DNA from: Rickettsiales bacterium
GTDB lineage: Bacteria > Pseudomonadota > Alphaproteobacteria > Rs-D84
Reading direction: 5' to 3'
Assembly (NCBI GenBank): GCA_031265235.1
Contig: JAISCX010000035.1
Span: 16,839 to 80,838 of the forward strand
Length of the DNA: 64,000 bases
Below are positions 1 to 13,343 of this stretch, in pieces. Positions within the stretch are counted from its first letter, which is position 1. Each line of letters begins with the position of its first letter. A program made the translations under genes and the position numbers. The notes beneath the pieces are model-generated. The model ran no database searches. It saw only the letters and a program-made list of their open reading frames with translations, and had not been told where the DNA came from.

Positions 1-2293
1 GATTTATGAAGTGGTGAATAATTCCATCGACGAGGCAATGGCCGGCTTTGCCGATACCGTTTATGTGTCGCTGAATCCCGACGGATCCGCAACGATCCGC
101 GACAACGGGCGCGGAATGCCGTTCGATATGAATCACAAGGAAGGCCGCAGCGCCCTGGAACTGATTATGTGCGAGCTGCATGCCGGCGGCAAATTCGATA
201 ACGAGACATCCGGCGCATACAAGGTGTCGGGCGGTCTGCACGGCGTCGGCGTTTCCGTTGTCAACGCGCTGTCCACTTGGCTGGAAGTGCGCGTGTGGCG
301 GTCGGGAGAAGAGGCGACGATGTCGTTCGCCGACGGCGCGCCGACGGGTTCCATAAAAATATCGCCGTATCCTGATGCGGCGAGACACGGGACCGAGGTT
401 ACGTTTCTGCCGTCGCCATCCACGTTCACATTCACCGATTTTGAATATGACACTTTGGAAACATGGCTGCGAGAGCAATCTTATCTGAATGCGAATGTAA
501 AAATTATTTTTGAAGATTTGCGCGGGGCGGAAAAAAAGAATCGCGACTTTCATTCCGTTGACGGACTGAAAGGGTTTGCCGCATATCTTGACAAGGCAAA
601 AGAAAAGCTGACGCCCACGCCTATTCATATAGTCCGCCAGATTGACGATTCTTATGTAGAGGTCGTGCTGGAATGGACGACGGCGTATAACGAAACGTCG
701 CTGGCGTTCACGAACAATATTCCGAATCGCGACGGCGGCACGCATTTGGCGGGATTCCGCGCCGGGCTTACGCGCGCGCTGAACAAATACATCGCGGAAA
801 AGAATTCAAAGAAAGACATCGCGCTGTCGGGCGAAGATTTTCGCGAAGGCCTTACCAACATCATATCCGTAAAAATCCCGGACCCAAAGTTTTCAAGCCA
901 GACCAAGGATAAACTGGTATCCAGCGAAGTCCGCCCGATCGTGGAATCCGCGGTAAGCGATTTGCTGTATGAATATCTGGATGAAAACCCGTCGGTCGGC
1001 AAGGCCATAATTGACAAGATTATGGAAGCCGCGACCGCCCGCGAGGCCGCCCGCAAAGCGCGCGAGCTGTCGCGCAAGAAAAACGGTCCGGATTTGAACG
1101 TGATATCCGGAAAACTGGCGCAATGCTCTGAGAAAGATCCGGAAAAGTCGGAATTGTTCATAGTAGAGGGCGATTCCGCCGGCGGCACCGCAAAACAGGG
1201 CCGCGACCGCAAGTTCCAGGCCATACTGCCGCTGCGCGGAAAGATTTTGAATGTAGAGCGCGTGCGGTTTGACCGCATGCTGTCGTCGGAAACTATCGGG
1301 ACCCTGATATCGGCCTTGGGCGCCGGCATCGGCAGCGATGATTTTGATATTGAAAAAATGCGCTATCACAAAGTCATCATCATGACCGACGCGGACGTTG
1401 ACGGCGCGCATATCCAGACGCTGCTGTTGACGTTCTTTTACCGCCATATGCGAGAAGCCATCGACAGAGGATTCGTATATGTTGCAAAGCCGCCGCTTTA
1501 CAGGGTTTCCCGCGGCAAACAGCAGGCGTATTTGCAGAATGAAAAAGAATACGACGATTATCTGCTGGATGTTTTGGCAACGGATGGGATGCTGGAATTA
1601 TCCGACGGCGCGCAGATCGCGGGCGCGGATTTGAAACGCGTGCTGGGGCTTTGCGCGAACGCAAAAACGATTTTATCGCCTTTGTCCAGCGCAATGCCGT
1701 TAAGATTTGTAGAGGCGCTGGCGCTGGCGGACGCGCTGCGTCCGCAAAAGGAACAGGGAACGGATGGCAGAAAACGGCTGGATTTTGTAGAAAAGTTTTT
1801 GGATTCGCAAGAACTGGACTTTGAAAAAGGATGGAAGGTGTCCGCGGATGAATCTGGAATTACAATCACGCGCACGCTGCGTTCCGTCACGGAAACGCAC
1901 GCGTTGCCAACGGGCGTTCTGGATTCCGCGGAAATCCGCGCATGGGAACGCATGGCGGGCCGCGAAGAATTGGTCCAGATGTTTTCCGGCGCCATAGTTC
2001 TGCGCGTAAAAAACAAGACGCAGAAATGCGGGTCGGCATTGGAATTGCTGGATACGGCGTTCAATTATGCAAAGCAGGGGCTGTCCATCCAGCGCTATAA
2101 AGGCCTTGGCGAAATGAATGCGGAACAATTATGGGAAACGACGATGGACCCAAATCATCGCGCGCTGTTCCAGGTCAAGGTCACCGACGCGACCAAGGCG
2201 GACGAAGTATTTTCCATGCTGATGGGCGACGTGGTGGAACCGCGCCGCGACTTTATCGTGGACAACGCGCTGAACGCCAACATAGATATATAA
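1..2293 (+). CDS. gyrB: DNA gyrase subunit B, 5'-truncated at window edge (C-terminal ~760 aa present)
   Basis: The ORF translation contains GKFDNETSGAYKVSGGLHGVGVSVVNALS, TOPRIM motifs (EGDSAGG) and the long proteobacterial insertion. The frame is open to position 1. Confidence 0.95.
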   Translation, partial: IYEVVNNSIDEAMAGFADTVYVSLNPDGSATIRDNGRGMPFDMNHKEGRSALELIMCELHAGGKFDNETSGAYKVSGGLHGVGVSVVNALSTWLEVRVWRSGEEATMSFADGAPTGSIKISPYPDAARHGTEVTFLPSPSTFTFTDFEYDTLETWLREQSYLNANVKIIFEDLRGAEKKNRDFHSVDGLKGFAAYLDKAKEKLTPTPIHIVRQIDDSYVEVVLEWTTAYNETSLAFTNNIPNRDGGTHLAGFRAGLTRALNKYIAEKNSKKDIALSGEDFREGLTNIISVKIPDPKFSSQTKDKLVSSEVRPIVESAVSDLLYEYLDENPSVGKAIIDKIMEAATAREAARKARELSRKKNGPDLNVISGKLAQCSEKDPEKSELFIVEGDSAGGTAKQGRDRKFQAILPLRGKILNVERVRFDRMLSSETIGTLISALGAGIGSDDFDIEKMRYHKVIIMTDADVDGAHIQTLLLTFFYRHMREAIDRGFVYVAKPPLYRVSRGKQQAYLQNEKEYDDYLLDVLATDGMLELSDGAQIAGADLKRVLGLCANAKTILSPLSSAMPLRFVEALALADALRPQKEQGTDGRKRLDFVEKFLDSQELDFEKGWKVSADESGITITRTLRSVTETHALPTGVLDSAEIRAWERMAGREELVQMFSGAIVLRVKNKTQKCGSALELLDTAFNYAKQGLSIQRYKGLGEMNAEQLWETTMDPNHRALFQVKVTDATKADEVFSMLMGDVVEPRRDFIVDNALNANIDI

Positions 2294-2403: not shown

Positions 2404-3144
2404 ATGAAAAAACTGATTTGTATTTTGGCGATTTTTCCGATTTTCTGCGCGTTTGGCGCCAGGCAGAAAACACCGGAAGAACAGCTGGAACAAGCGGTTG
2501 CAGAAAATGATATAGGCAGAATTATATACGCTATTTCATCCGGCGCGACAAACAAAGAAAAAGTAACCAAGGACTATCTTGCCCGCAATAATCCGCAATT
2601 TATAACAGCATTGGCTTTGGTGGATAGTGCAAGTAATTTGAAAAACTATTCGATATCAAGTGCAAGCATGTATAACTTTTGTTTCGCAAAGAAGAAGATT
2701 TGGAAATTGACGATCGCGGATATAAAGCGGGACAGCAATTATAGGGAAGGAATATTTGTTTATATCGGTATTGATAATAATGGTAATCTGAAAACAGAAA
2801 AAGTGTGGGCGAAATCTGAATTGACGGAAGCAGAAAAATTCATATGGGCAAAGGGCGTGTGTTATATTGACGACACGCTGAAAGACGCCGATATGATAAA
2901 TTGTTACTTTGATCTGAATGAAAAATATTGCAGCATAGAAAGAAACAAGGAAATTCTGACAGGCATATTGAATCCGGATTCTGGAAAGAAAGATGAAGCA
3001 TCATCATGGGGAAATCTGTCGGCAATGTTGAAACCCCCAGAAAACCAAGGGTCAGAGCAATCAGTATTGAAACAAATCGCATCAGAGCGTCTTGAAAGAT
3101 TAAATAAATTGGAAGAATCCATAAAACAAAAGGCGGCACAATGA
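2404..3144 (+). CDS. hypothetical secreted protein (N-terminal signal peptide MKKLICILAIFPIFCAFGA)
   Basis: 246-aa ORF in an AT-rich segment with a hydrophobic N-terminus. Its TGA stop overlaps the ATG of the next ORF (ATGA). Confidence 0.6.
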   Translation: MKKLICILAIFPIFCAFGARQKTPEEQLEQAVAENDIGRIIYAISSGATNKEKVTKDYLARNNPQFITALALVDSASNLKNYSISSASMYNFCFAKKKIWKLTIADIKRDSNYREGIFVYIGIDNNGNLKTEKVWAKSELTEAEKFIWAKGVCYIDDTLKDADMINCYFDLNEKYCSIERNKEILTGILNPDSGKKDEASSWGNLSAMLKPPENQGSEQSVLKQIASERLERLNKLEESIKQKAAQ

Positions 3145-3731
3145 AATTCAAACTACTCTATTTCGGCGAGCTGCGCGTCAATCCGAAAAAACGCGCGCAG
3201 CATATCACGGACATTCGGATGAAATTTCATCCGCAATTGAAAAAATTGGTGGAACATTCCCCGTGGAACAATCTTCAAAAATACATGATGCCCGCCCCGT
3301 CGAAATCGCCGGTCAACACGCGGCATGTCGGCGGAATCGATTTTAATCCGATCATCACGCCCGCGTTGAAGCTGCTTTGCGAATTGGACGTGCAGCTGTT
3401 GCATCCGGAGGTTGTCGGAATCGCCCGCGCGGATATCGATAACCGCATGAAGACGCTGCTGGATGCGCTGCGCTGTCCGCAGAACGAGCATGAGATAGGC
3501 GAAAACCAGCCAAAGGGAATTGGGCCGGTTTATACCCTTCTGGACGACGACCATTTGGTGACCAGATTGTCGGTGAATACTTCGCATTTTCTTGCGCCCA
3601 ATATGTTTGATGTTGACGCGACGGAAAATGCCCCGGTGTCGATAGAACAGGAAGAACGCATTTTCGCAATGATAGATGTGAATGTGCGCGTGGAAGAGGG
3701 GACGCTTGAAAATTTACCATTCATGGTGTGA
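3141..3731 (+). CDS. hypothetical protein (translationally coupled to the upstream secreted protein)
   Basis: 196-aa ORF with a 4-nt ATGA overlap with the preceding ORF. No recognisable domain; it contains an R-x5-H stretch (RCPQNEH) but this is weak. Confidence 0.5.
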   Translation: MKFKLLYFGELRVNPKKRAQHITDIRMKFHPQLKKLVEHSPWNNLQKYMMPAPSKSPVNTRHVGGIDFNPIITPALKLLCELDVQLLHPEVVGIARADIDNRMKTLLDALRCPQNEHEIGENQPKGIGPVYTLLDDDHLVTRLSVNTSHFLAPNMFDVDATENAPVSIEQEERIFAMIDVNVRVEEGTLENLPFMV

Positions 3732-3826
3732 TAAAATTGTCAAAACGCACCGTCTGCCTTGCGTTCGCAATACGCAGCATCCGGCACATTTTGACAATTT
3801 TATCCGCAGGGCGAGGAATATAGAAG

Positions 3827-4165
3827 ATGAATCCATCAACAAAACAAGTTATAACAGACGTTATAAAATACAAAGGCAAGAATTTTGCCGTACTTTATGC
3901 GATAGAAGAATTTGCGGAACTGACCAAAGAATTATTAAAAGATATAAACCGTCACAAAGATAACATTGATGATATTTTTGAAGAAGTGGCGGACGTCAGT
4001 GTCATTATGGAATACCTTAAATTGATTTATAATATATCAGATGATAAAATCTGGGATTATCTGAATAAAAAAATGCCGGAAAAGTGGGCGCCGCGCATTG
4101 AAAAATGGAAAGCCCGCGTTGCTGATACCGGAAATCCGGATGCAAATAAGAGAATCTTGGATTGA
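3827..4165 (+). CDS. MazG-like nucleotide pyrophosphohydrolase (small single-domain type)
   Basis: 112 aa with EEFAELTKEL and EEVADVSVIMEYLKL, matching the MazG EExxE/EExxD helix pair. A GAGG-type RBS lies upstream. Confidence 0.65.
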   Translation: MNPSTKQVITDVIKYKGKNFAVLYAIEEFAELTKELLKDINRHKDNIDDIFEEVADVSVIMEYLKLIYNISDDKIWDYLNKKMPEKWAPRIEKWKARVADTGNPDANKRILD

Positions 4166-4833
4166 TAAACTTGGATGCGGAATTCTTTTTTGATTTGGAA
4201 CGGCGGTTGAAAGCCGCAGGTTTGGATTCCGATTCAGAAAGTTTTGACGTTATAAAAGAACGCCTGTCGCACAAAGAGCATTTGTCCGCGAATGAATTCG
4301 CGCGCCAGGCAATATATGTAATTCTCGCCGGCGGGTTTTCCCAAAAAACCGCAAAGGTGATTCATGGCAAGGTTATGGATTATATTGAAAAAAATCCGTC
4401 GGCCAGCCATGACCAGATGTTTGGCGATCTGATAAAAACTTTCAATAACAAAAACAAAATCAACGCGGTTATAAAGATTTGGCAGAACAGGCAACAATAT
4501 AGGGATGATTATTATGCGATAAACGGTTCGTTGGAACAAAAATTGGCATACATTGTAAAGTTGCCGCATATTGGAAAAATCACCGCGAACCATCTGGCGC
4601 GGAATCTGGGCGAGGACGTTGTAAAATACGATATATGGATCCAGCGTCTTGGCGTTGTCTTTTCCGGACGTGATTTATGGGACAAGATAGATAATGGCGA
4701 TCTTGATCCACAAGTAAAAGCCGCATGCGACGAAATGTTCGCGCATCTGGCGCGCGAAACAGGTCTGCCCCGCGGATATATCGATGTCGTGTTGTGGAAA
4801 GCATGTCAGAACCATATGATAGAAGGGTTATGA
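4162..4833 (+). CDS. HhH-type DNA glycosylase-like protein (AlkA/Tag-like helix-hairpin-helix)
   Basis: Putative TTG start overlaps the MazG stop. LPHIGKITANHLARNLG is an HhH motif followed by an Asp (KYDIW). The C-terminus has YIDVVLWKACQNH, similar to the AlkA C-terminus. Confidence 0.5.
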   Translation: MINLDAEFFFDLERRLKAAGLDSDSESFDVIKERLSHKEHLSANEFARQAIYVILAGGFSQKTAKVIHGKVMDYIEKNPSASHDQMFGDLIKTFNNKNKINAVIKIWQNRQQYRDDYYAINGSLEQKLAYIVKLPHIGKITANHLARNLGEDVVKYDIWIQRLGVVFSGRDLWDKIDNGDLDPQVKAACDEMFAHLARETGLPRGYIDVVLWKACQNHMIEGL

Positions 4834-4834
4834 T

Positions 4835-5707
4835 ATGTCGAAATATTTACGAAAAGTTTACGATGGCGCAAGCGGTGGATGGGTTATCGAGAAAGGCATG
4901 CAAGAATGCAATACGGCCCAGTTCGGAAAAGGTTGGTTGGCTGATCAGATAAAAGAAAGAAGGATAACAAACAAATTGCTTGCGATCGGCAGGGAAGAAT
5001 ATATCGTCCCGAAAATGTTAGAGATAGACAAAGAAAAAGTCCGGGTGCGGCAAAAATTCATATCGGGCGGCATGGTTACGGAACAATATTTTAAAGGCCT
5101 TTCAAAACAGCATAAAAATAGCGTAATCGCCGCCAATGCGCTTTTTACAGCCGATATGGCGTCGTTAAAGCCAGTGGCATTCCGCAACAGGTTCCGGTTC
5201 TGGGACGGACTGATGAACGATATTTCGACCGGGATGCCCGCCGACGTGTTAAGCTGCCATGACCTTGCATATTTATGCGAATCCGCGCAGGCGGCCAAGG
5301 ATTTTATTGATACCAAACCGTTTTCGCAGGCCTATGTATTTCAACACGGGGACAACAGCTATAATAATGTTTTGTATGATAAGAAAAAACGGCGCATGGG
5401 CGTGATAGATTTTGAAGCGGCGGGAATCGGCGATCTGCACGGCGCGTTCGCCATGCTGCTGCCCGATATGGATCCGGCCTTGGAAAGCATGCAGGGCACC
5501 GTATTCGCGAATGAATATCCGAAAGTTTTCCAAAGCATATCGGCGGCTAATTTTAAGATATATGACTTTGTCCAGGATTTTTATATATACGGATCAATGT
5601 TTCTTCGCGTGCGCAAGCGCGATTATCATAAAAATGGATTCAGAAATATCTTTGCCGAGATGGTCAAATCCGCCAAGATTATAGAAAAAAGCAGGAGCAT
5701 GAAATGA
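4835..5707 (+). CDS. phosphotransferase enzyme family protein (APH/choline-kinase-like fold)
   Basis: FQHGDNSYNNVLYD is a Brenner/HGD catalytic-loop motif and GVIDFEAAGIGD is a DFG-like IDFE motif. The start is 1 nt after the upstream stop. Confidence 0.65.
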   Translation: MSKYLRKVYDGASGGWVIEKGMQECNTAQFGKGWLADQIKERRITNKLLAIGREEYIVPKMLEIDKEKVRVRQKFISGGMVTEQYFKGLSKQHKNSVIAANALFTADMASLKPVAFRNRFRFWDGLMNDISTGMPADVLSCHDLAYLCESAQAAKDFIDTKPFSQAYVFQHGDNSYNNVLYDKKKRRMGVIDFEAAGIGDLHGAFAMLLPDMDPALESMQGTVFANEYPKVFQSISAANFKIYDFVQDFYIYGSMFLRVRKRDYHKNGFRNIFAEMVKSAKIIEKSRSMK

Positions 5708-6378
5708 ACGTAAAAATTGAAGAAACATGGAAAACGGCATTAGAGAATGAATTCGACAAGCCTTATTTTATCGCGCTGACCGATTTCGTGCGCGAACAAT
5801 ACAACAAGTGGGCGAACGGCGCGGCCGCAATTTATCCAAAGCCCGCAGAGATATTCAATGCTTTCAATATGTGCCCGTATGACCGGGCCAGGGTTGTCAT
5901 AATCGGCCAGGACCCGTATCATGAGCCGGGCCAGGCGCACGGGCTGTGCTTTTCCGTGCGCGACGGAATCGCTTTGCCGCCAAGTCTGCAAAATATTTAC
6001 AAAGAAATTCAGAACGATTTGGGACGCGAATCCGTCACGCGCGGTGATTTGACCAAGTGGGCGGAACAGGGCGTTTTATTGCTGAACTCTACGCTGACGG
6101 TCCAGGCGCATTTGGCTGCAAGCCACGCAGGCAAAGGGTGGGAACAATTTACGGATGCCGTGATAAAAGCATTGTCGCGCCAAACCGGAATTGTGTATTT
6201 ACTATGGGGCAGCTATGCCCAGCGAAAAGCCGAATTCGTAAACCCTATGGAAAACCTGGTGCTGAAATCCGTGCATCCGTCGCCGTTGTCGGCGTCGCGG
6301 GGATTTTTCGGCAACCATCACTTTTCCCGCGCGAACGAATATCTGGCCGCCCATGGCAAAGAGCCGATAGAGTGGTAA
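5704..6378 (+). CDS. ung: uracil-DNA glycosylase
   Basis: Contains VVIIGQDPYHEPGQAHGLCFSV, LLLNSTLTV and HPSPLSASRGFFG, which are the canonical family-1 UDG motifs. ATGA overlap with the upstream gene. Confidence 0.92.
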   Translation: MNVKIEETWKTALENEFDKPYFIALTDFVREQYNKWANGAAAIYPKPAEIFNAFNMCPYDRARVVIIGQDPYHEPGQAHGLCFSVRDGIALPPSLQNIYKEIQNDLGRESVTRGDLTKWAEQGVLLLNSTLTVQAHLAASHAGKGWEQFTDAVIKALSRQTGIVYLLWGSYAQRKAEFVNPMENLVLKSVHPSPLSASRGFFGNHHFSRANEYLAAHGKEPIEW

Positions 6379-6712: not shown

Positions 6713-7840
6713 ATGAAGAAGGGCTTATACAGCAAATCGGTCATTTTCGGTCTGTCGGCATGCGCGCTGCTTTCGTCCCAAGAAGCGAAATCTGAAAATG
6801 CAGAAAAAGATTCCGTGCGATTGGTCGAATCTGTCGATAGCCTGACGTCGGCGGGGATCATAAGCTGTGCGGCGTCCGTTTTTTCCGTAAGTGAATCGCT
6901 GGCTGGCGACTTTCACGACATTGAAAAGTTTCTGGCGCGGATAAAATCCGACGGCCCGAAAATCAACCGCGATTCGCTGGCAAATCTTGAATTTTCGGAA
7001 ATTGCGAAATTTGTCGAAAGCGCGAAAAGGCGGCCGGCGCGCGTGGAAATCGAAACCGTTCCGATAAAAAGCGCCGATGATATGAAACGCCTGTTCGAAA
7101 CAGGATCCTTTGTCCAGGCCGGATACAATCAGGATATCAATATAATCGAGATAAACGTGCTGGCCGCGGATTTCAAGCCCGCGGAAAATCCCGGATTGTT
7201 CGCGCTGATCCAATCAATGAACGCGGAATTGCCGTTTCTGTTCGTTCACGAGAAAAAGCACGAATTCGACGCCGCGCGCAAGCGCCCGGAATTTTTGAAT
7301 TTCGATCGGCAAATGCCGGAATATGAGTTTTATTTTGAATGCGCCGGCTATGTTTCCGGGCTGCTTGCAAAGCGGCTGGCGCTTTTGCGCACGCGGGAAT
7401 TGCAAACGGCGGGGCCCATAGACAGCATTTCGTCCGGCGAAATCAGCCGCGACGAGGCGGACGCATTGGTCATGTCGATGATCAAATGGTTAAAGGAAAA
7501 CGGCGCGGACTATGCGCGCCGTCAGATTCCGGGAATGGTCGCGAAAGACGTCCGCGACGCGTTTGCGAATTTGAGAAAAAGCAAAGAGGCCCCGATTCTG
7601 TTTCAAGAACAGGTGCGCCGCCTGTTCCAATTTGAAACAGGAAATCTGCTGGATATTTGCGGACCGGAATTAAGAAAAACGCTGGCCCGCGAAATCGAAA
7701 GTCTGGCGAACGGCAAACGGCTGAAAAAAGATCTGGCGAAATTGTCCGCCCGCATTCCCGCCATGATTCAATTCATAGACCGCGCCCAACGCGCGCGTTT
7801 CGCATTTTATTATCAAAATCAAAAAGGAGATGAAAAATGA
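6713..7840 (+). CDS. hypothetical secreted protein (signal peptide MKKGLYSKSVIFGLSACALLSSQEA)
   Basis: 375-aa ORF with a good RBS (AGGAGCAATCATG). Its stop overlaps the next ATG. Confidence 0.65.
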   Translation: MKKGLYSKSVIFGLSACALLSSQEAKSENAEKDSVRLVESVDSLTSAGIISCAASVFSVSESLAGDFHDIEKFLARIKSDGPKINRDSLANLEFSEIAKFVESAKRRPARVEIETVPIKSADDMKRLFETGSFVQAGYNQDINIIEINVLAADFKPAENPGLFALIQSMNAELPFLFVHEKKHEFDAARKRPEFLNFDRQMPEYEFYFECAGYVSGLLAKRLALLRTRELQTAGPIDSISSGEISRDEADALVMSMIKWLKENGADYARRQIPGMVAKDVRDAFANLRKSKEAPILFQEQVRRLFQFETGNLLDICGPELRKTLAREIESLANGKRLKKDLAKLSARIPAMIQFIDRAQRARFAFYYQNQKGDEK

Positions 7841-8451
7841 AGACTGCTTTTGCGGCCGGTGCTTTGTGTGCGCTGGTATTATTGACGGAAACGGGGAATG
7901 CGTTTTATTGCGCCAACAGTATGACCACTGCTTTCGCGACGTATTGTTCCGGGCTGGGGGGGACGATATCCACGTTGGATAACGCAGAGTTTTCCAACGG
8001 GGGCCATTGCAGCTATGTATGCTTTTCCAACGCGGCCGAGAAGACCTCTGTCGAGTCCAAGAAGAACAACGCCACCGCGGCCACAGGAAGTTGCGGCAGC
8101 AATGCGAGTCCGGTTTACAGTAGTGGGGCGGTGATGACCACAAGCCCGGCGACATGCAATATCAGCGAAAACGTATGCGGCGGGCCCAACAGTCCGACGT
8201 ATTACAGTATAAACAGCGCGGTCAAACCGATATCTTCGTGCAAATGCAATGCCGGATACTGGGGGGCGACGTCCGTCCCGACAACCTGCACCAGGTGTCC
8301 GAAAATTTGCGACAACCCGTCCGGATCGGAAGTGTTCGGGACATCAACGGCCGGATCCACGGCACAAACTCAATGCCAGGCGCCCGCAGGAACACAATGC
8401 AAGGACGGCGCCGGCGATTATACATTTCAAGCCGCTTGCAGTTATCAATAG
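7837..8451 (+). CDS. cysteine-rich secreted protein (signal peptide; C-terminal CxxC-rich modules)
   Basis: 204 aa with the N-terminal signal MKTAFAAGALCALVLLTETGNA and many Cys in CxC/CxxC spacing. Translationally coupled to the 6713 gene. Confidence 0.6.
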   Translation: MKTAFAAGALCALVLLTETGNAFYCANSMTTAFATYCSGLGGTISTLDNAEFSNGGHCSYVCFSNAAEKTSVESKKNNATAATGSCGSNASPVYSSGAVMTTSPATCNISENVCGGPNSPTYYSINSAVKPISSCKCNAGYWGATSVPTTCTRCPKICDNPSGSEVFGTSTAGSTAQTQCQAPAGTQCKDGAGDYTFQAACSYQ

Positions 8452-8546: not shown

Positions 8547-9095
8547 CTATCTGTATGAAACCTTGTGATTAACTAATTCACATGACCCAAGCTTTTTGTC
8601 GTTATGGACATCCAGGTTATTTATATCCTCTTTGCCCAGCGCGACGCCCAGTAAAAAATAGTGGTGTCGAAAAGGCGCGCCAAAAATATCGAAAAGATTT
8701 TCATAAGTATCAAATAAAGCGTTTGCCCAGTCCTCGTGGTCTTGCTGCTCTAAGCTTGCCAATTCTATAAAAAAAGTTTTTATCTTTGCGCATCGGTTTT
8801 CGTTTTTATGCGCGGCGCAGTATATGTTATCAAAGTCCAAGGGCATTTTTTCAATCTTTCTTATATCAAAGTATCCGGTTTCTTCAATCAATTCACGAAT
8901 GGCGGAAACCATCGGATTTTCATTATCTTCAATTCCACCTTGAACCAAAACATTCCAACCAAATTTCTTATTGCTTAGATACAAATATTTATCTTCTGAC
9001 GGGTGCTTGACCACAACCATGATGGAATCACGTTCCACTGTTTTCATTGATGGATTCAATTTATTTTCATCGATGCTTTCAATTATTGGAATCAT
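8547..9095 (-). CDS. NUDIX hydrolase
   Basis: Nudix box GGIEDNENPMVSAIRELIEETG (GX5EX7REUXEEXGU). The start is taken at MIPIIES with an AAGAGG RBS; the longer ORF to 9167 lacks an RBS. Confidence 0.75.
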   Translation of the reverse strand: MIPIIESIDENKLNPSMKTVERDSIMVVVKHPSEDKYLYLSNKKFGWNVLVQGGIEDNENPMVSAIRELIEETGYFDIRKIEKMPLDFDNIYCAAHKNENRCAKIKTFFIELASLEQQDHEDWANALFDTYENLFDIFGAPFRHHYFLLGVALGKEDINNLDVHNDKKLGSCELVNHKVSYR

Positions 9096-9229
9096 TATAA
9101 AACCTCTTATATTGAACCATTGGAATTTATCGAACGCGCGCATGCTTTGCAAAACCAATGCTATCAAAGGAAATCCAACTTTTCAAGAAAATCTGTGATA
9201 TAATACAACCTGAGCGAGGAGCAGTTGAA

Positions 9230-9802
9230 ATGAAGCTGTATCACGGAACAGATAAAGAGATTCAAGCAGGCGAATATTTAAATCCCCAAAAAAATTGGAT
9301 CGATGGGAAAGAAGAAAAAGAAAAGACGCATGCCGTTTTTGCAACCCCGCTGTTAAACTGGGCTCAGTGCTTTGCTTTTTGCAGGGCTGTGGAGAAAGGC
9401 CTATGCAAAATAAGCCCTATGGATACAGGATTTTTAATCGTATCAAACAACTGCTTGCCGTTTGACGATGCAAAAGATACAAAAATATTTGTATATGAAT
9501 TGCCGACCAAAGGATTTGCACGTTCTAATCCGGAAAAGAAAGGCGGCGTTGAAGAATATATTTCGCACGGTCCTGTAAAAGTTATGCAAACGGTTGCCGA
9601 AACAACGGTTGGGGAATTATTAAAGTCAGGTTATATAAAATTATATACTGTTCCGGACGAAATAATGAAGCAGACGTGGGGTAATAAAAACATAAAAGCA
9701 GCAGATATAATAAATAATCCGGAATACAATGCGCAAATTTATTATGACTTTAACAAGGCATTATTTATGCAGCAAGCAGTTATGATTAAAGACCGAATAT
9801 AA
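9230..9802 (+). CDS. hypothetical protein (divergent from the NUDIX gene)
   Basis: The start MKLYHGTDKE is preceded by a GAGGAG RBS. No confident domain assignment. Confidence 0.5.
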   Translation: MKLYHGTDKEIQAGEYLNPQKNWIDGKEEKEKTHAVFATPLLNWAQCFAFCRAVEKGLCKISPMDTGFLIVSNNCLPFDDAKDTKIFVYELPTKGFARSNPEKKGGVEEYISHGPVKVMQTVAETTVGELLKSGYIKLYTVPDEIMKQTWGNKNIKAADIINNPEYNAQIYYDFNKALFMQQAVMIKDRI

Positions 9803-11425: not shown

Positions 11426-11965
<540 letters not shown>

Positions 11966-12015
11966 TTGGGATTCCAGCCCAGGCCCGGAATGACACGGTA
12001 AGAAAGAAGGATATG

Positions 12016-13164
12016 TTTATGAAAAAACTATTGGCCGTCAGCTGTTTTCTATGGGCTTTGCCCGCATTGGCGGCGGACCCGGCTTTTACCAATCTATCGG
12101 TCAAAAATCGTATTCTGAATATCATTGGTTCTGATTTTCCTTATTCGCCGATTTCATCGTATGTTACAAGCGACCGCCTTTTGCATTTGGACGCTATTGA
12201 CAACACAGGCGCCGGCGATATGAATCATTCATATGCCACGACCACTTGGACCGATTTGTCCGGCAACGCCAACAATATTTCAGGTATGGTCGGAATCCTG
12301 AATTGGTCTGTGCAAAGTCTGAAAATCGGCGGCAGCGACGGGATTATTTACGCGCCGACAATCAAACTGCAACCGCAATACGACGATGGCAAAACTCTCA
12401 CAAAAATGACTTACGAGTATATTTTCAGTGGAAATTCGTATATCGCAAATGCAGGAATAAACAGTATTGACACCGACCCCTTTGACAAAAGCATCAACAA
12501 TTGTTTCTGGAAACAAACGTCCAATTCCGGCGGCAATATTACTTGGCAATGGACGGACAAGGGAAATATCCGCCGGGCAACCGTATCTATTCCGGATGAT
12601 GGAAAAATTCACGCGGTATCGGTAAGTCTTGATATGACGGTGCAGACCAACGGATTATTAAAGTTTTATGTAGACGGGGTCTATCAAACCAGCGCTTCCA
12701 CCAATAGCAACACCGGATATTCCAGCGGATTTACTTTGGGCAGAAGTTTCCAAGACGATTTTCCCGCCCCGAACGTAAAGCTGCACAGTGTCAGAATTTA
12801 TAATACAAATCTGACCGACGCCCAATTGATGAATAATTTTACAGTGGATTCTATACGGTTTCTGGCCCCGCCGGTAATAAAAATCGGAAATGCCGTTTGC
12901 GGCGAAGTTTCTGTTTTATCATCCGGCGCGATAAGTTGCATGGTGCCGGCATCCGTTGTGGCCGGCGAGTACGAGGTTACTTATACCGAAAACGGAACAG
13001 TGTTTACGGTCGGAAAATGCACTTATGACGGGCAGAATTGCATAGATGTGAATTTTAATTATAGCAACATTGCAAAGTCCGGAAAGCTGATGAAAGCAAT
13101 TTATCGTGGCGGCAGCAAAGTCAAGGCGGTGTTCAAAAACGGGGTCCAAATATTTTCTGAATAA
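12016..13164 (+). CDS. secreted LamG/concanavalin-A-like lectin domain protein
   Basis: Signal MFMKKLLAVSCFLWALPALA with an AAGAAGGA RBS. The block FTLGRSF...KLHSVRIYNTNLTDAQL is typical of LamG jelly-roll domains. Confidence 0.6.
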   Translation, partial: FMKKLLAVSCFLWALPALAADPAFTNLSVKNRILNIIGSDFPYSPISSYVTSDRLLHLDAIDNTGAGDMNHSYATTTWTDLSGNANNISGMVGILNWSVQSLKIGGSDGIIYAPTIKLQPQYDDGKTLTKMTYEYIFSGNSYIANAGINSIDTDPFDKSINNCFWKQTSNSGGNITWQWTDKGNIRRATVSIPDDGKIHAVSVSLDMTVQTNGLLKFYVDGVYQTSASTNSNTGYSSGFTLGRSFQDDFPAPNVKLHSVRIYNTNLTDAQLMNNFTVDSIRFLAPPVIKIGNAVCGEVSVLSSGAISCMVPASVVAGEYEVTYTENGTVFTVGKCTYDGQNCIDVNFNYSNIAKSGKLMKAIYRGGSKVKAVFKNGVQIFSE

Positions 13165-13269: not shown

Positions 13270-13343
13270 GCCCGCATAGTATAATGGTAGAACAGGTCCT
13301 TGGTAAGGACCAGGCGCAAGTCCGATTCTTGCTGCGGGCACCA
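13270..13343 (+). tRNA. tRNA-Thr (anticodon GGT)
   Basis: Acceptor stem GCCCGCA/TGCGGGC, anticodon stem GGTCC/GGACC with loop TTGGTAA and T-arm GCAAG-TCCGATT-CTTGC. Discriminator A and an encoded CCA. One A-A mismatch in the D stem. Confidence 0.85.

Follow-up and report, generated by a model that had tools for sequence, protein, structure and literature searches.

Whether closely overlapping genes in a compact bacterial genome must belong to one pathway is the question raised by a cluster of six genes in the Rickettsiales bacterium of assembly GCA_031265235.1 (lineage Rs-D84). The cluster occupies positions 2404 to 6378 of the stretch analysed here, hereafter the window, which comprises 64,000 nucleotides (nt) of contig JAISCX010000035.1 (positions 16,839 to 80,838, forward strand). 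Its genes encode a protein with an N-terminal signal peptide (sec246), a 196-residue protein (unk196), a small MazG-like protein (mazG112), a helix-hairpin-helix (HhH) glycosylase (HhH223), a phosphotransferase of the aminoglycoside phosphotransferase (APH) fold (kin290) and a uracil-DNA glycosylase (UNG, ung224). The original prediction joined the last four into one operon, possibly dedicated to the surveillance of non-canonical nucleotides, to base modification or to phage defence. Comparison with related genomes makes another reading likely: the locus would be a lineage-specific cluster for base-excision repair and DNA maintenance that carries accessory insertions, and not a dedicated new pathway.

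Gene order around ung in Rs-D84

A scan of species-representative genomes with 12 closer sequences of the HhH223 family gave 345 HhH loci, and the neighbourhood of the glycosylase gene was compared by tblastn in the best 80 of them, from 80 species of the Rs-D84 lineage. Of these 80 loci, 78 have ung beside HhH, and gyrB and unk196 are found nearby in 76 and 72, respectively. The remaining genes of the cluster are far less constant: a MazG-like gene accompanies HhH in nine of the 80 species, a member of the sec246 family in one, and the kinase in none. Where HhH and ung are co-oriented, the start of ung falls within 30 nt of the HhH stop in 53 of 76 cases. Long contigs with HhH homologues show the order gyrB, unk196, HhH and ung, followed by aspS, asmA and uvrB. 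Where unk196 does not sit in the gyrB-HhH interval, it is divergent from gyrB. The window keeps the long-contig order (gyrB ... HhH-ung ... aspS-asmA-uvrB) and opens with gyrB itself (11..2293, + strand), a type IIA topoisomerase B subunit whose N-terminus lies beyond the window edge and which serves as the anchor of the neighbourhood (Pfam DNA_gyraseB, Toprim, DNA_gyraseB_C and HATPase_c).

Hence the two glycosylase genes are indeed neighbours in other genomes, whereas the four-gene operon does not hold up as a conserved unit, given the scarcity of the MazG-like gene and the kinase and the unrelated genes that occupy the same junctions elsewhere. The 196-residue protein had been grouped with the secreted protein to which its gene is coupled; it belongs instead to the conserved, gyrB-linked part of the locus.

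Two deviating loci, L058 and L079, both from metagenome-assembled genomes (MAGs) labelled Rickettsiales, have the block rearranged, with gyrB(-mazG)-ung on one strand and unk196-HhH on the other; the adjacency of unk196 and HhH therefore survives breakage of the link between HhH and ung. In L079, it is ung, not HhH, that the MazG-like gene accompanies. Six further records (L016, L017, L022, L024, L028 and L030), deposited as "uncultured Muribaculaceae bacterium" and including a complete chromosome of 716,531 bp (OZ246409.1), carry alphaproteobacterial gyrB, unk196, HhH and ung genes with 60-69% identity in HhH, so that the Muribaculaceae labels of these MAGs look wrong. The order Rs-D84, in which Ca. 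Enterousia has been placed, is one in which genome reduction is common, the analysed genomes measuring 0.67-1.6 Mb (PMC12306168). The lineage compared here thus consists of gut Alphaproteobacteria related to Ca. Enterousia, the window itself being of the termite-gut type.

The backbone thus outlined would consist of gyrB, a RusA-like nuclease (unk196), an Ogg2-like glycosylase (HhH223) and a family-1 ung, the locus in the window being the local version of a lineage-wide neighbourhood. The glycosylase pair, normally translationally coupled, most likely supplies co-expressed base-excision repair. In the cluster described here, three further genes, encoding the MazG-like protein, the secreted protein and the kinase, would represent cargo inserted into the two junctions that flank HhH, and they are probably read through from the backbone promoter or promoters.

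All six open reading frames (ORFs) lie on the + strand, with coordinates confirmed from the ORF list, and junction sequences read directly show 4-nt overlaps at 3141 and 5704 (ATGA) and at 4162 (TTGA). The ATGA coupling of the signal-peptide gene to unk196 is thus present as originally described, and so are the 4-nt overlaps among the downstream genes; the supposed 1-nt overlap between HhH223 and kin290 (4833/4835), by contrast, is a 1-nt spacer (TGA-T-ATG). A gap of 95 nt separates unk196 from mazG112. Based on a rough greedy ORF call across the whole window, four of the five junctions within the cluster measure at most 2 nt, compared to five of the 33 other same-strand junctions (Fisher p = 0.0075); gene packing in the cluster is denser than the local norm. 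A promoter and terminator scan of the locus performed no better than on shuffled sequence. Tight overlaps make read-through of the cargo probable, but are no proof of one pathway; the simplest explanation for them is that genes were inserted into an operon that was already transcribed, in a genome that is compact.

Base composition partly separates the two sets of genes. The G+C content at third codon positions (GC3) is 0.645 in gyrB, 0.627 in aspS, 0.624 in unk196 and 0.609 in ung. It is low in sec246 (0.39) and mazG112 (0.345), which are clearly atypical, and intermediate in kin290 (0.53) and HhH223 (0.49).

The conserved proteins: an Ogg2-like glycosylase, UNG and a probable RusA-like protein

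HhH223 (4162..4833, +, 223 amino acids, TTG start), a member of the conserved backbone, has no match in Pfam or NCBIfam; four of the six cluster proteins are without a match in these two collections. It does match the single-domain PADLOC model 'OGG' (5e-18). Searching the PDB with the single sequence was uninformative; a profile of the family (45 members) was required, and this matches MjOgg, the Ogg2 enzyme of Methanocaldococcus (3KNT/3FHF), over its full length (E 2e-7). The AF2 model, with a predicted local distance difference test (pLDDT) score of 97.2, has 12 helices in a two-domain all-alpha fold, and its best Foldseek matches in the PDB are MjOgg and SsOgg, with template-modelling (TM) scores of 0.63-0.71. 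The top 47 of these matches are all HhH-GPD glycosylases (Ogg2, AlkA, OGG1, EndoIII, MagIII and ROS1), with AlkA, OGG1, EndoIII and MagIII ranking behind MjOgg and SsOgg. Six residues are invariant across 45 diverse family members: K99, G138, G150, K155, D157 and D208. Four of them lie in the motif L-P-H-I-G138-K-I-T-A-N-H-L-A-R-N-L-G150-E-D-V-V-K155-Y-D157 (family consensus K-P-D at its end), in which D157 aligns with D147 of MjOgg, the catalytic Asp of Ogg2. Motif, catalytic Asp and fold all place HhH223 in the HhH-GPD superfamily. The Lys that forms the Schiff base in Ogg2 (K129 in MjOgg), however, is missing: its position is taken by Ile140 (family consensus I-G-k-I-T), and the adjoining K139 varies within the family, where it is replaced by E, C, N, D, P or A. 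HhH223 is thus probably an active glycosylase of a distinct Ogg2-like family, and it would be monofunctional, acting via Asp157, because the Schiff-base position lacks a Lys. Among damaged bases, an oxidised or alkylated purine would be its most plausible target.

HhH223 and the Ogg2 enzymes, which are archaeal-type, bifunctional 8-oxoguanine glycosylases/AP lyases (MjOgg 3FHF/3KNT, SsOgg 3FHG, TmOgg 3N0U), are of similar size (~205-220 amino acids) and have the same two-domain HhH-GPD fold; common to both are the HhH motif IG..(A/T).H(F/L)(L/A)RN(V/L)G, the catalytic Asp and a C-terminal (I/L)D...W helix. They differ in that identity is only ~15%, that a different Lys, K155, is invariant in the HhH223 family and precedes the Asp by two positions (KxD), that no Pfam model covers this family, and that HhH223 occurs in gut Alphaproteobacteria beside ung and gyrB. 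The AlkA/Tag-like features originally ascribed to the protein were correct as far as an HhH-GPD glycosylase is concerned, but profile and Foldseek searches both put Ogg2 nearest. AlkA structures rank lower (TM 0.44-0.48), the catalytic Asp is present, unlike in Tag, and just one of the 45 family members touches the Pfam model Adenine_glyco (1e-4).

The family is large, with 1783 homologues, and outside Rs-D84 it is found in quite different gene contexts. In L091 (6001-7310), for example, the gene of a distant member, P0166 (~29% identity), shares one base with the beginning of a gene for a SET-domain methyltransferase, and a restriction-modification gene of the MmeI type lies ~5 kb upstream.

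The partner of HhH223 in the backbone, ung224 (5704..6378, +, 224 amino acids), matches NCBIfam NF003589 with 310 bits (cut-off 223, 9e-93) and TIGR00628 with 259 bits (cut-off 186, 3e-77), as well as Pfam UDG, and its translation carries both the water-activating loop GQDPYH and the Leu-intercalation loop HPSPLS. These equivalog-level matches and motifs bear out the UNG call: as judged by its sequence, ung224 is unambiguously a family-1 uracil-DNA glycosylase, which would remove uracil. It is a full-length equivalog of E. coli Ung with both catalytic motifs, and only the pairing with an Ogg2-like enzyme is specific to the lineage.

The third conserved protein, unk196 (3141..3731, +, 196 amino acids), has 249 homologues with 66-89% identity within the lineage, all of which are labelled "hypothetical". 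Its sole Pfam match is a weak one to RusA, below threshold (E 0.17), and a profile of the family found no match among PDB sequences. The family has an invariant D98-x-D100-N-R-x-K-x-x-x-D108-x-L motif together with D135-D137, which by eye resembles the catalytic motif of RusA; in the E. coli enzyme, the catalytic Asp triad consists of D70, D72 and D91. An hhalign comparison of the family with E. coli RusA aligns this motif with E 0.011 at low probability. These lines of evidence, each of them weak, converge on RusA. The protein, originally described as unknown, is therefore probably a RusA-like, Mg-dependent, structure-specific endonuclease of the Holliday-junction-resolvase fold with long insertions. 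E. coli RusA (PDB 1Q8R; Pfam PF05866) is shorter, with 120 amino acids, and prophage-borne, whereas unk196 is chromosomal, conserved and linked to gyrB.

Probable accessory genes of the cluster and further genes nearby

The kinase gene kin290 (4835..5707, +, 290 amino acids) is rare cargo in the slot between HhH and ung. Its product matches Pfam APH (PF01636) with 37.2 bits (cut-off 23.2, 3.4e-9), and its C-lobe aligns with APH(2'')-Ia, H171-G-D173-N-S-Y-N-N178 and I-D192-F-E corresponding to HND...N and IDFGD. With APH(2'')-Ia (PDB 5IQI/4ORK) and APH(3'), it shares the Pfam APH fold, an H-G-D-x4-N catalytic loop and the DFG-like Mg site I-D-F-E, but the match to APH(2'')-Ia is weak (28 bits) and limited to the C-lobe; the N-terminal lobe is matched by no model. 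Among the NCBIfam resistance models, the best score is 32.1 for APH_3p against a cut-off of 205, the others being lower, and Pfam Choline_kinase (19.9 against 29) stays below its cut-off as well. Of the two folds originally proposed, the APH fold with its HGD and IDFE motifs is therefore upheld and choline kinase is not. In 5.8 billion proteins, the only relatives of kin290 are the protein itself and one homologue with 51% identity, which sits in the same slot of L007/L008, a sister termite-gut lineage. JGI metagenome contigs contained no further homologue, and neither viral contigs nor phage genomes gave a match. By these comparisons, kin290 is an APH-fold (eukaryotic-like) small-molecule kinase of an essentially orphan family with two known members.

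The small protein mazG112 (3827..4165, +, 112 amino acids) is optional cargo in the slot between gyrB and HhH. It has no match to Pfam MazG, MazG-like or PRA-PH at E<=1, and a PDB search with the single sequence returned nothing meaningful. It does match PHROG 2245, a nucleoside triphosphate (NTP) pyrophosphohydrolase, at 5e-15, and the family profile that was required for structural comparison matches B. subtilis YpjD (2GTA, 1.5e-4), 5IE9 and SSO3215 of Sulfolobus (1VMG); tblastn adds weak matches to phage NTP-PPase-like genes. The signature E27-E28-x-x-E31 plus E52-E53-x-x-D56 is present, with E28, E31, E52, E53 and D56 invariant in 10 homologues. The original assignment as a small MazG-type NTP pyrophosphohydrolase is thus supported, albeit without a Pfam match. 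Like the known all-alpha NTP pyrophosphohydrolases (YpjD, 5IE9, 1VMG and PHROG 2245), mazG112 has a single short helical domain (~100 amino acids) with EExxE...EExxD; unlike them, it falls under the Pfam MazG thresholds, and its gene is an optional one placed between gyrB and the gene of a glycosylase. It plausibly house-cleans non-canonical deoxynucleoside triphosphates (dNTPs), which would be compatible with base-excision repair.

The accessory gene sec246 (2404..3144, +, 246 amino acids) belongs to a rare lineage-specific secreted family. Its N-terminus was read by eye as a signal peptide, MKKLICILAIFPIFCAFGA, and no match was found in Pfam, NCBIfam, PHROG or PADLOC. The protein is 28% identical to a 306-residue secreted protein in L007, which in turn is related to a 303-residue protein in L009; both of the latter are encoded between HhH/kinase and ung. 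Both the kinase and the secreted protein are thus cargo of rare occurrence for which no connection with repair could be detected, and the kinase is most likely unrelated to it, e.g., a small-molecule or antibiotic-type kinase.

Other genomes fill the same two slots differently. Between gyrB and HhH, two unrelated families of small K/E-rich ORFs are found in 25 and 16 of 76 species, a MazG-like protein in eight, a 238-residue protein in eight, unk196 in five, and singletons including an alpha/beta-hydrolase in others; L009 has an HD/YfbR-like 5'-deoxynucleotidase here, preceded by an AAA_14/DUF4143 ATPase. Between HhH and ung, the occupants are YunG, a GNAT acetyltransferase, a GT2 glycosyltransferase on the opposite strand, the secreted 303-residue protein and unknown proteins. 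The K/E-rich proteins (~90-130 amino acids, no Pfam match) are encoded directly upstream of HhH, often overlapping it (L084:6607-6990, L076:6645-7004), and may act with the glycosylase as small partners, may regulate it, or may be fast-evolving filler. The 238-residue family (L044:5996-6712 and seven further loci) likewise lacks a Pfam match; by eye, its sequence includes H-G-H-S-H-P-x-S, which recalls a motif of JAMM/MPN metalloproteases. In L004 and L006, the small ORFs that precede HhH were considered as MazG relatives and rejected, as they show neither similarity nor an EExxE motif.

Downstream of ung, the window holds further genes of note. An ATGA-coupled pair on the + strand (6713-7840 and 7837-8451) encodes a 375-residue protein with a hydrophobic N-terminus and a 204-residue protein that is rich in Cys, Ser and Thr and begins with a signal-like segment; neither matches Pfam or NCBIfam, and relatives lack the pair at this position, having PagL, aspS or other genes after ung instead. 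It is succeeded by a NUDIX hydrolase gene on the - strand (8547-9167; Pfam 1.4e-6, GC3 0.41), another nucleotide hydrolase within 3 kb of ung, and by a divergently overlapping + strand gene (9158-9802; GC3 0.35) for a 214-residue protein, the sole match of which is a weak one to the rifampin ADP-ribosyltransferase Arr (E 0.059). Both of these genes look recently acquired, because their GC3 is very low compared to the backbone (~0.62). Finally, a coupled pair on the + strand (11426-11965 and 11962-13164), just upstream of a tRNA-Thr gene (13270-13343), carries a phage lower-baseplate BppL_N motif (2.9e-6) and Laminin_G_3/TIG domains and could be an adhesin or a phage-receptor-binding-like module.

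Repair cluster or dedicated pathway

Several observations weigh against a backbone with incidental cargo. Two lineages whose kinases share no more than 51% identity have both retained the gene in this one slot, and it is therefore under some selection there. The cargo genes overlap their neighbours as tightly as the backbone genes do. HhH223, a backbone gene, has a GC3 of only 0.49, so that composition is an imperfect marker of acquisition, and the RusA assignment of unk196 comes from weak sequence scores and a low-confidence model. Moreover, the slot upstream of HhH is home to a MazG-like enzyme in some genomes and to a YfbR-like HD enzyme in others; both hydrolyse nucleotides, which hints at a non-random nucleotide-pool theme. 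The rival reading is an integrated module, in which the MazG-like or HD enzyme dephosphorylates aberrant dNTPs or deoxynucleoside monophosphates, the kinase either puts a phosphate back on a nucleoside or tags a lesion or intermediate, and the two glycosylases excise what has been incorporated, the four proteins jointly surveying or salvaging non-canonical nucleotides. The tightly coupled junctions, the filling of the upstream slot by nucleotide hydrolases (MazG-like in 9/80, YfbR-like HD in L009/L013), the retention of the kinase between HhH and ung in both lineages, and the probable reliance of reduced genomes on salvage (PMC12306168) would all be in line with it. Such a module is nevertheless rather unlikely: the kinase is missing from all 80 HhH-carrying species representatives and the MazG-like gene from 71 of them, the same slots hold unrelated GNAT, YunG, alpha/beta-hydrolase and secreted proteins as well as K/E-rich small ORFs, and the GC3 of mazG suggests recent acquisition. 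The only similarity detected for the kinase is to aminoglycoside-type APH enzymes, and no nucleoside kinase is known to have an APH fold, which also counts against the module. A bolder variant, in which the Lys-less glycosylase is the centre of a lineage-specific non-canonical-base system with the MazG-like or HD enzyme and the kinase as partners (the latter might, e.g., be built on an APH scaffold yet act on nucleosides or lesions, as a new type of kinase), and in which unk196 separately is an essential RusA-type resolvase replacing RuvC, appears quite improbable.

A phage-derived, defence or base-modifying module would combine a glycosylase-fold enzyme with a kinase, as in the thymidine hypermodification of phages (5-hmdU DNA kinase and the glycosylase-fold aGPT-Pplase), or would use an Ogg-like sensor. 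Inactivated Ogg/EndoIII-like domains do serve as sensors of modified bases in END defence nucleases (PMC12191111), a use that lends the idea some appeal; HhH223 matches the PADLOC 'OGG' model, the best family match of the MazG-like protein is a PHROG, with weak phage matches in addition, and amino-acid:DNA transferase and Pplase proteins turn up as weak matches in a fold search of BFVD. Yet PADLOC gave only the single-domain 'OGG' and a marginal DruC match (E 0.009), without partner genes and hence without a system. HhH223 stands alone, not fused to a nuclease, and its catalytic Asp is intact; it is vertically conserved in single copy beside gyrB and ung across a bacterial order, and essentially all relatives have it without a kinase. 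Fold matches to viral proteins are weak (best E 5e-3, TM <=0.56, compared to 0.63-0.71 for Ogg2), the kinase has no relatives in phages or viral contigs and is not a P-loop 5-HMUDK, and the locus contains no hydroxymethylase, integrase or phage structural genes. The distribution thus largely refutes this part of the original prediction, and we regard it as very improbable. A different proposal concerns the kinase alone and refines the repair-cluster reading, to which it is no alternative: kin290 may be a cassette of the aminoglycoside- or macrolide-modifying type, directed against xenobiotics or antibiotics, in a permissive, transcribed junction. It best matches APH(3'), APH(2'') and structures of APH(2'')-Ia, to which its catalytic D and N and its Mg-binding D align, its distribution is rare and patchy, and another species has a GNAT acetyltransferase, also a classic fold for drug modification, in this slot between HhH and ung. 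The proposal stays tentative and somewhat doubtful, given scores of at most 32 bits against NCBIfam resistance cut-offs of at least 205, the unmatched N-terminal lobe, an ORF list without flanking mobile-element genes, and a GC3 that is only mildly atypical.

If the locus is a DNA-maintenance backbone with accessory cargo, it is ordinary in kind, a cluster of repair genes. It offers a caution, in that tight ATGA coupling in a compact genome is by itself no sign of a shared pathway, the junctions of a conserved operon serving here as landing sites for unrelated cargo. It also draws attention to two conserved, unannotated families, a Lys-less Ogg2-like glycosylase paired with ung and a long RusA-like protein near gyrB, both of which persist even in gut-symbiont genomes of ~0.7-1 Mb and are likely important because genes that are kept in reduced genomes usually are. 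Characterising them would fill gaps in our picture of two processes in such bacteria, the repair of oxidised or alkylated bases and the resolution of intermediates of recombination.

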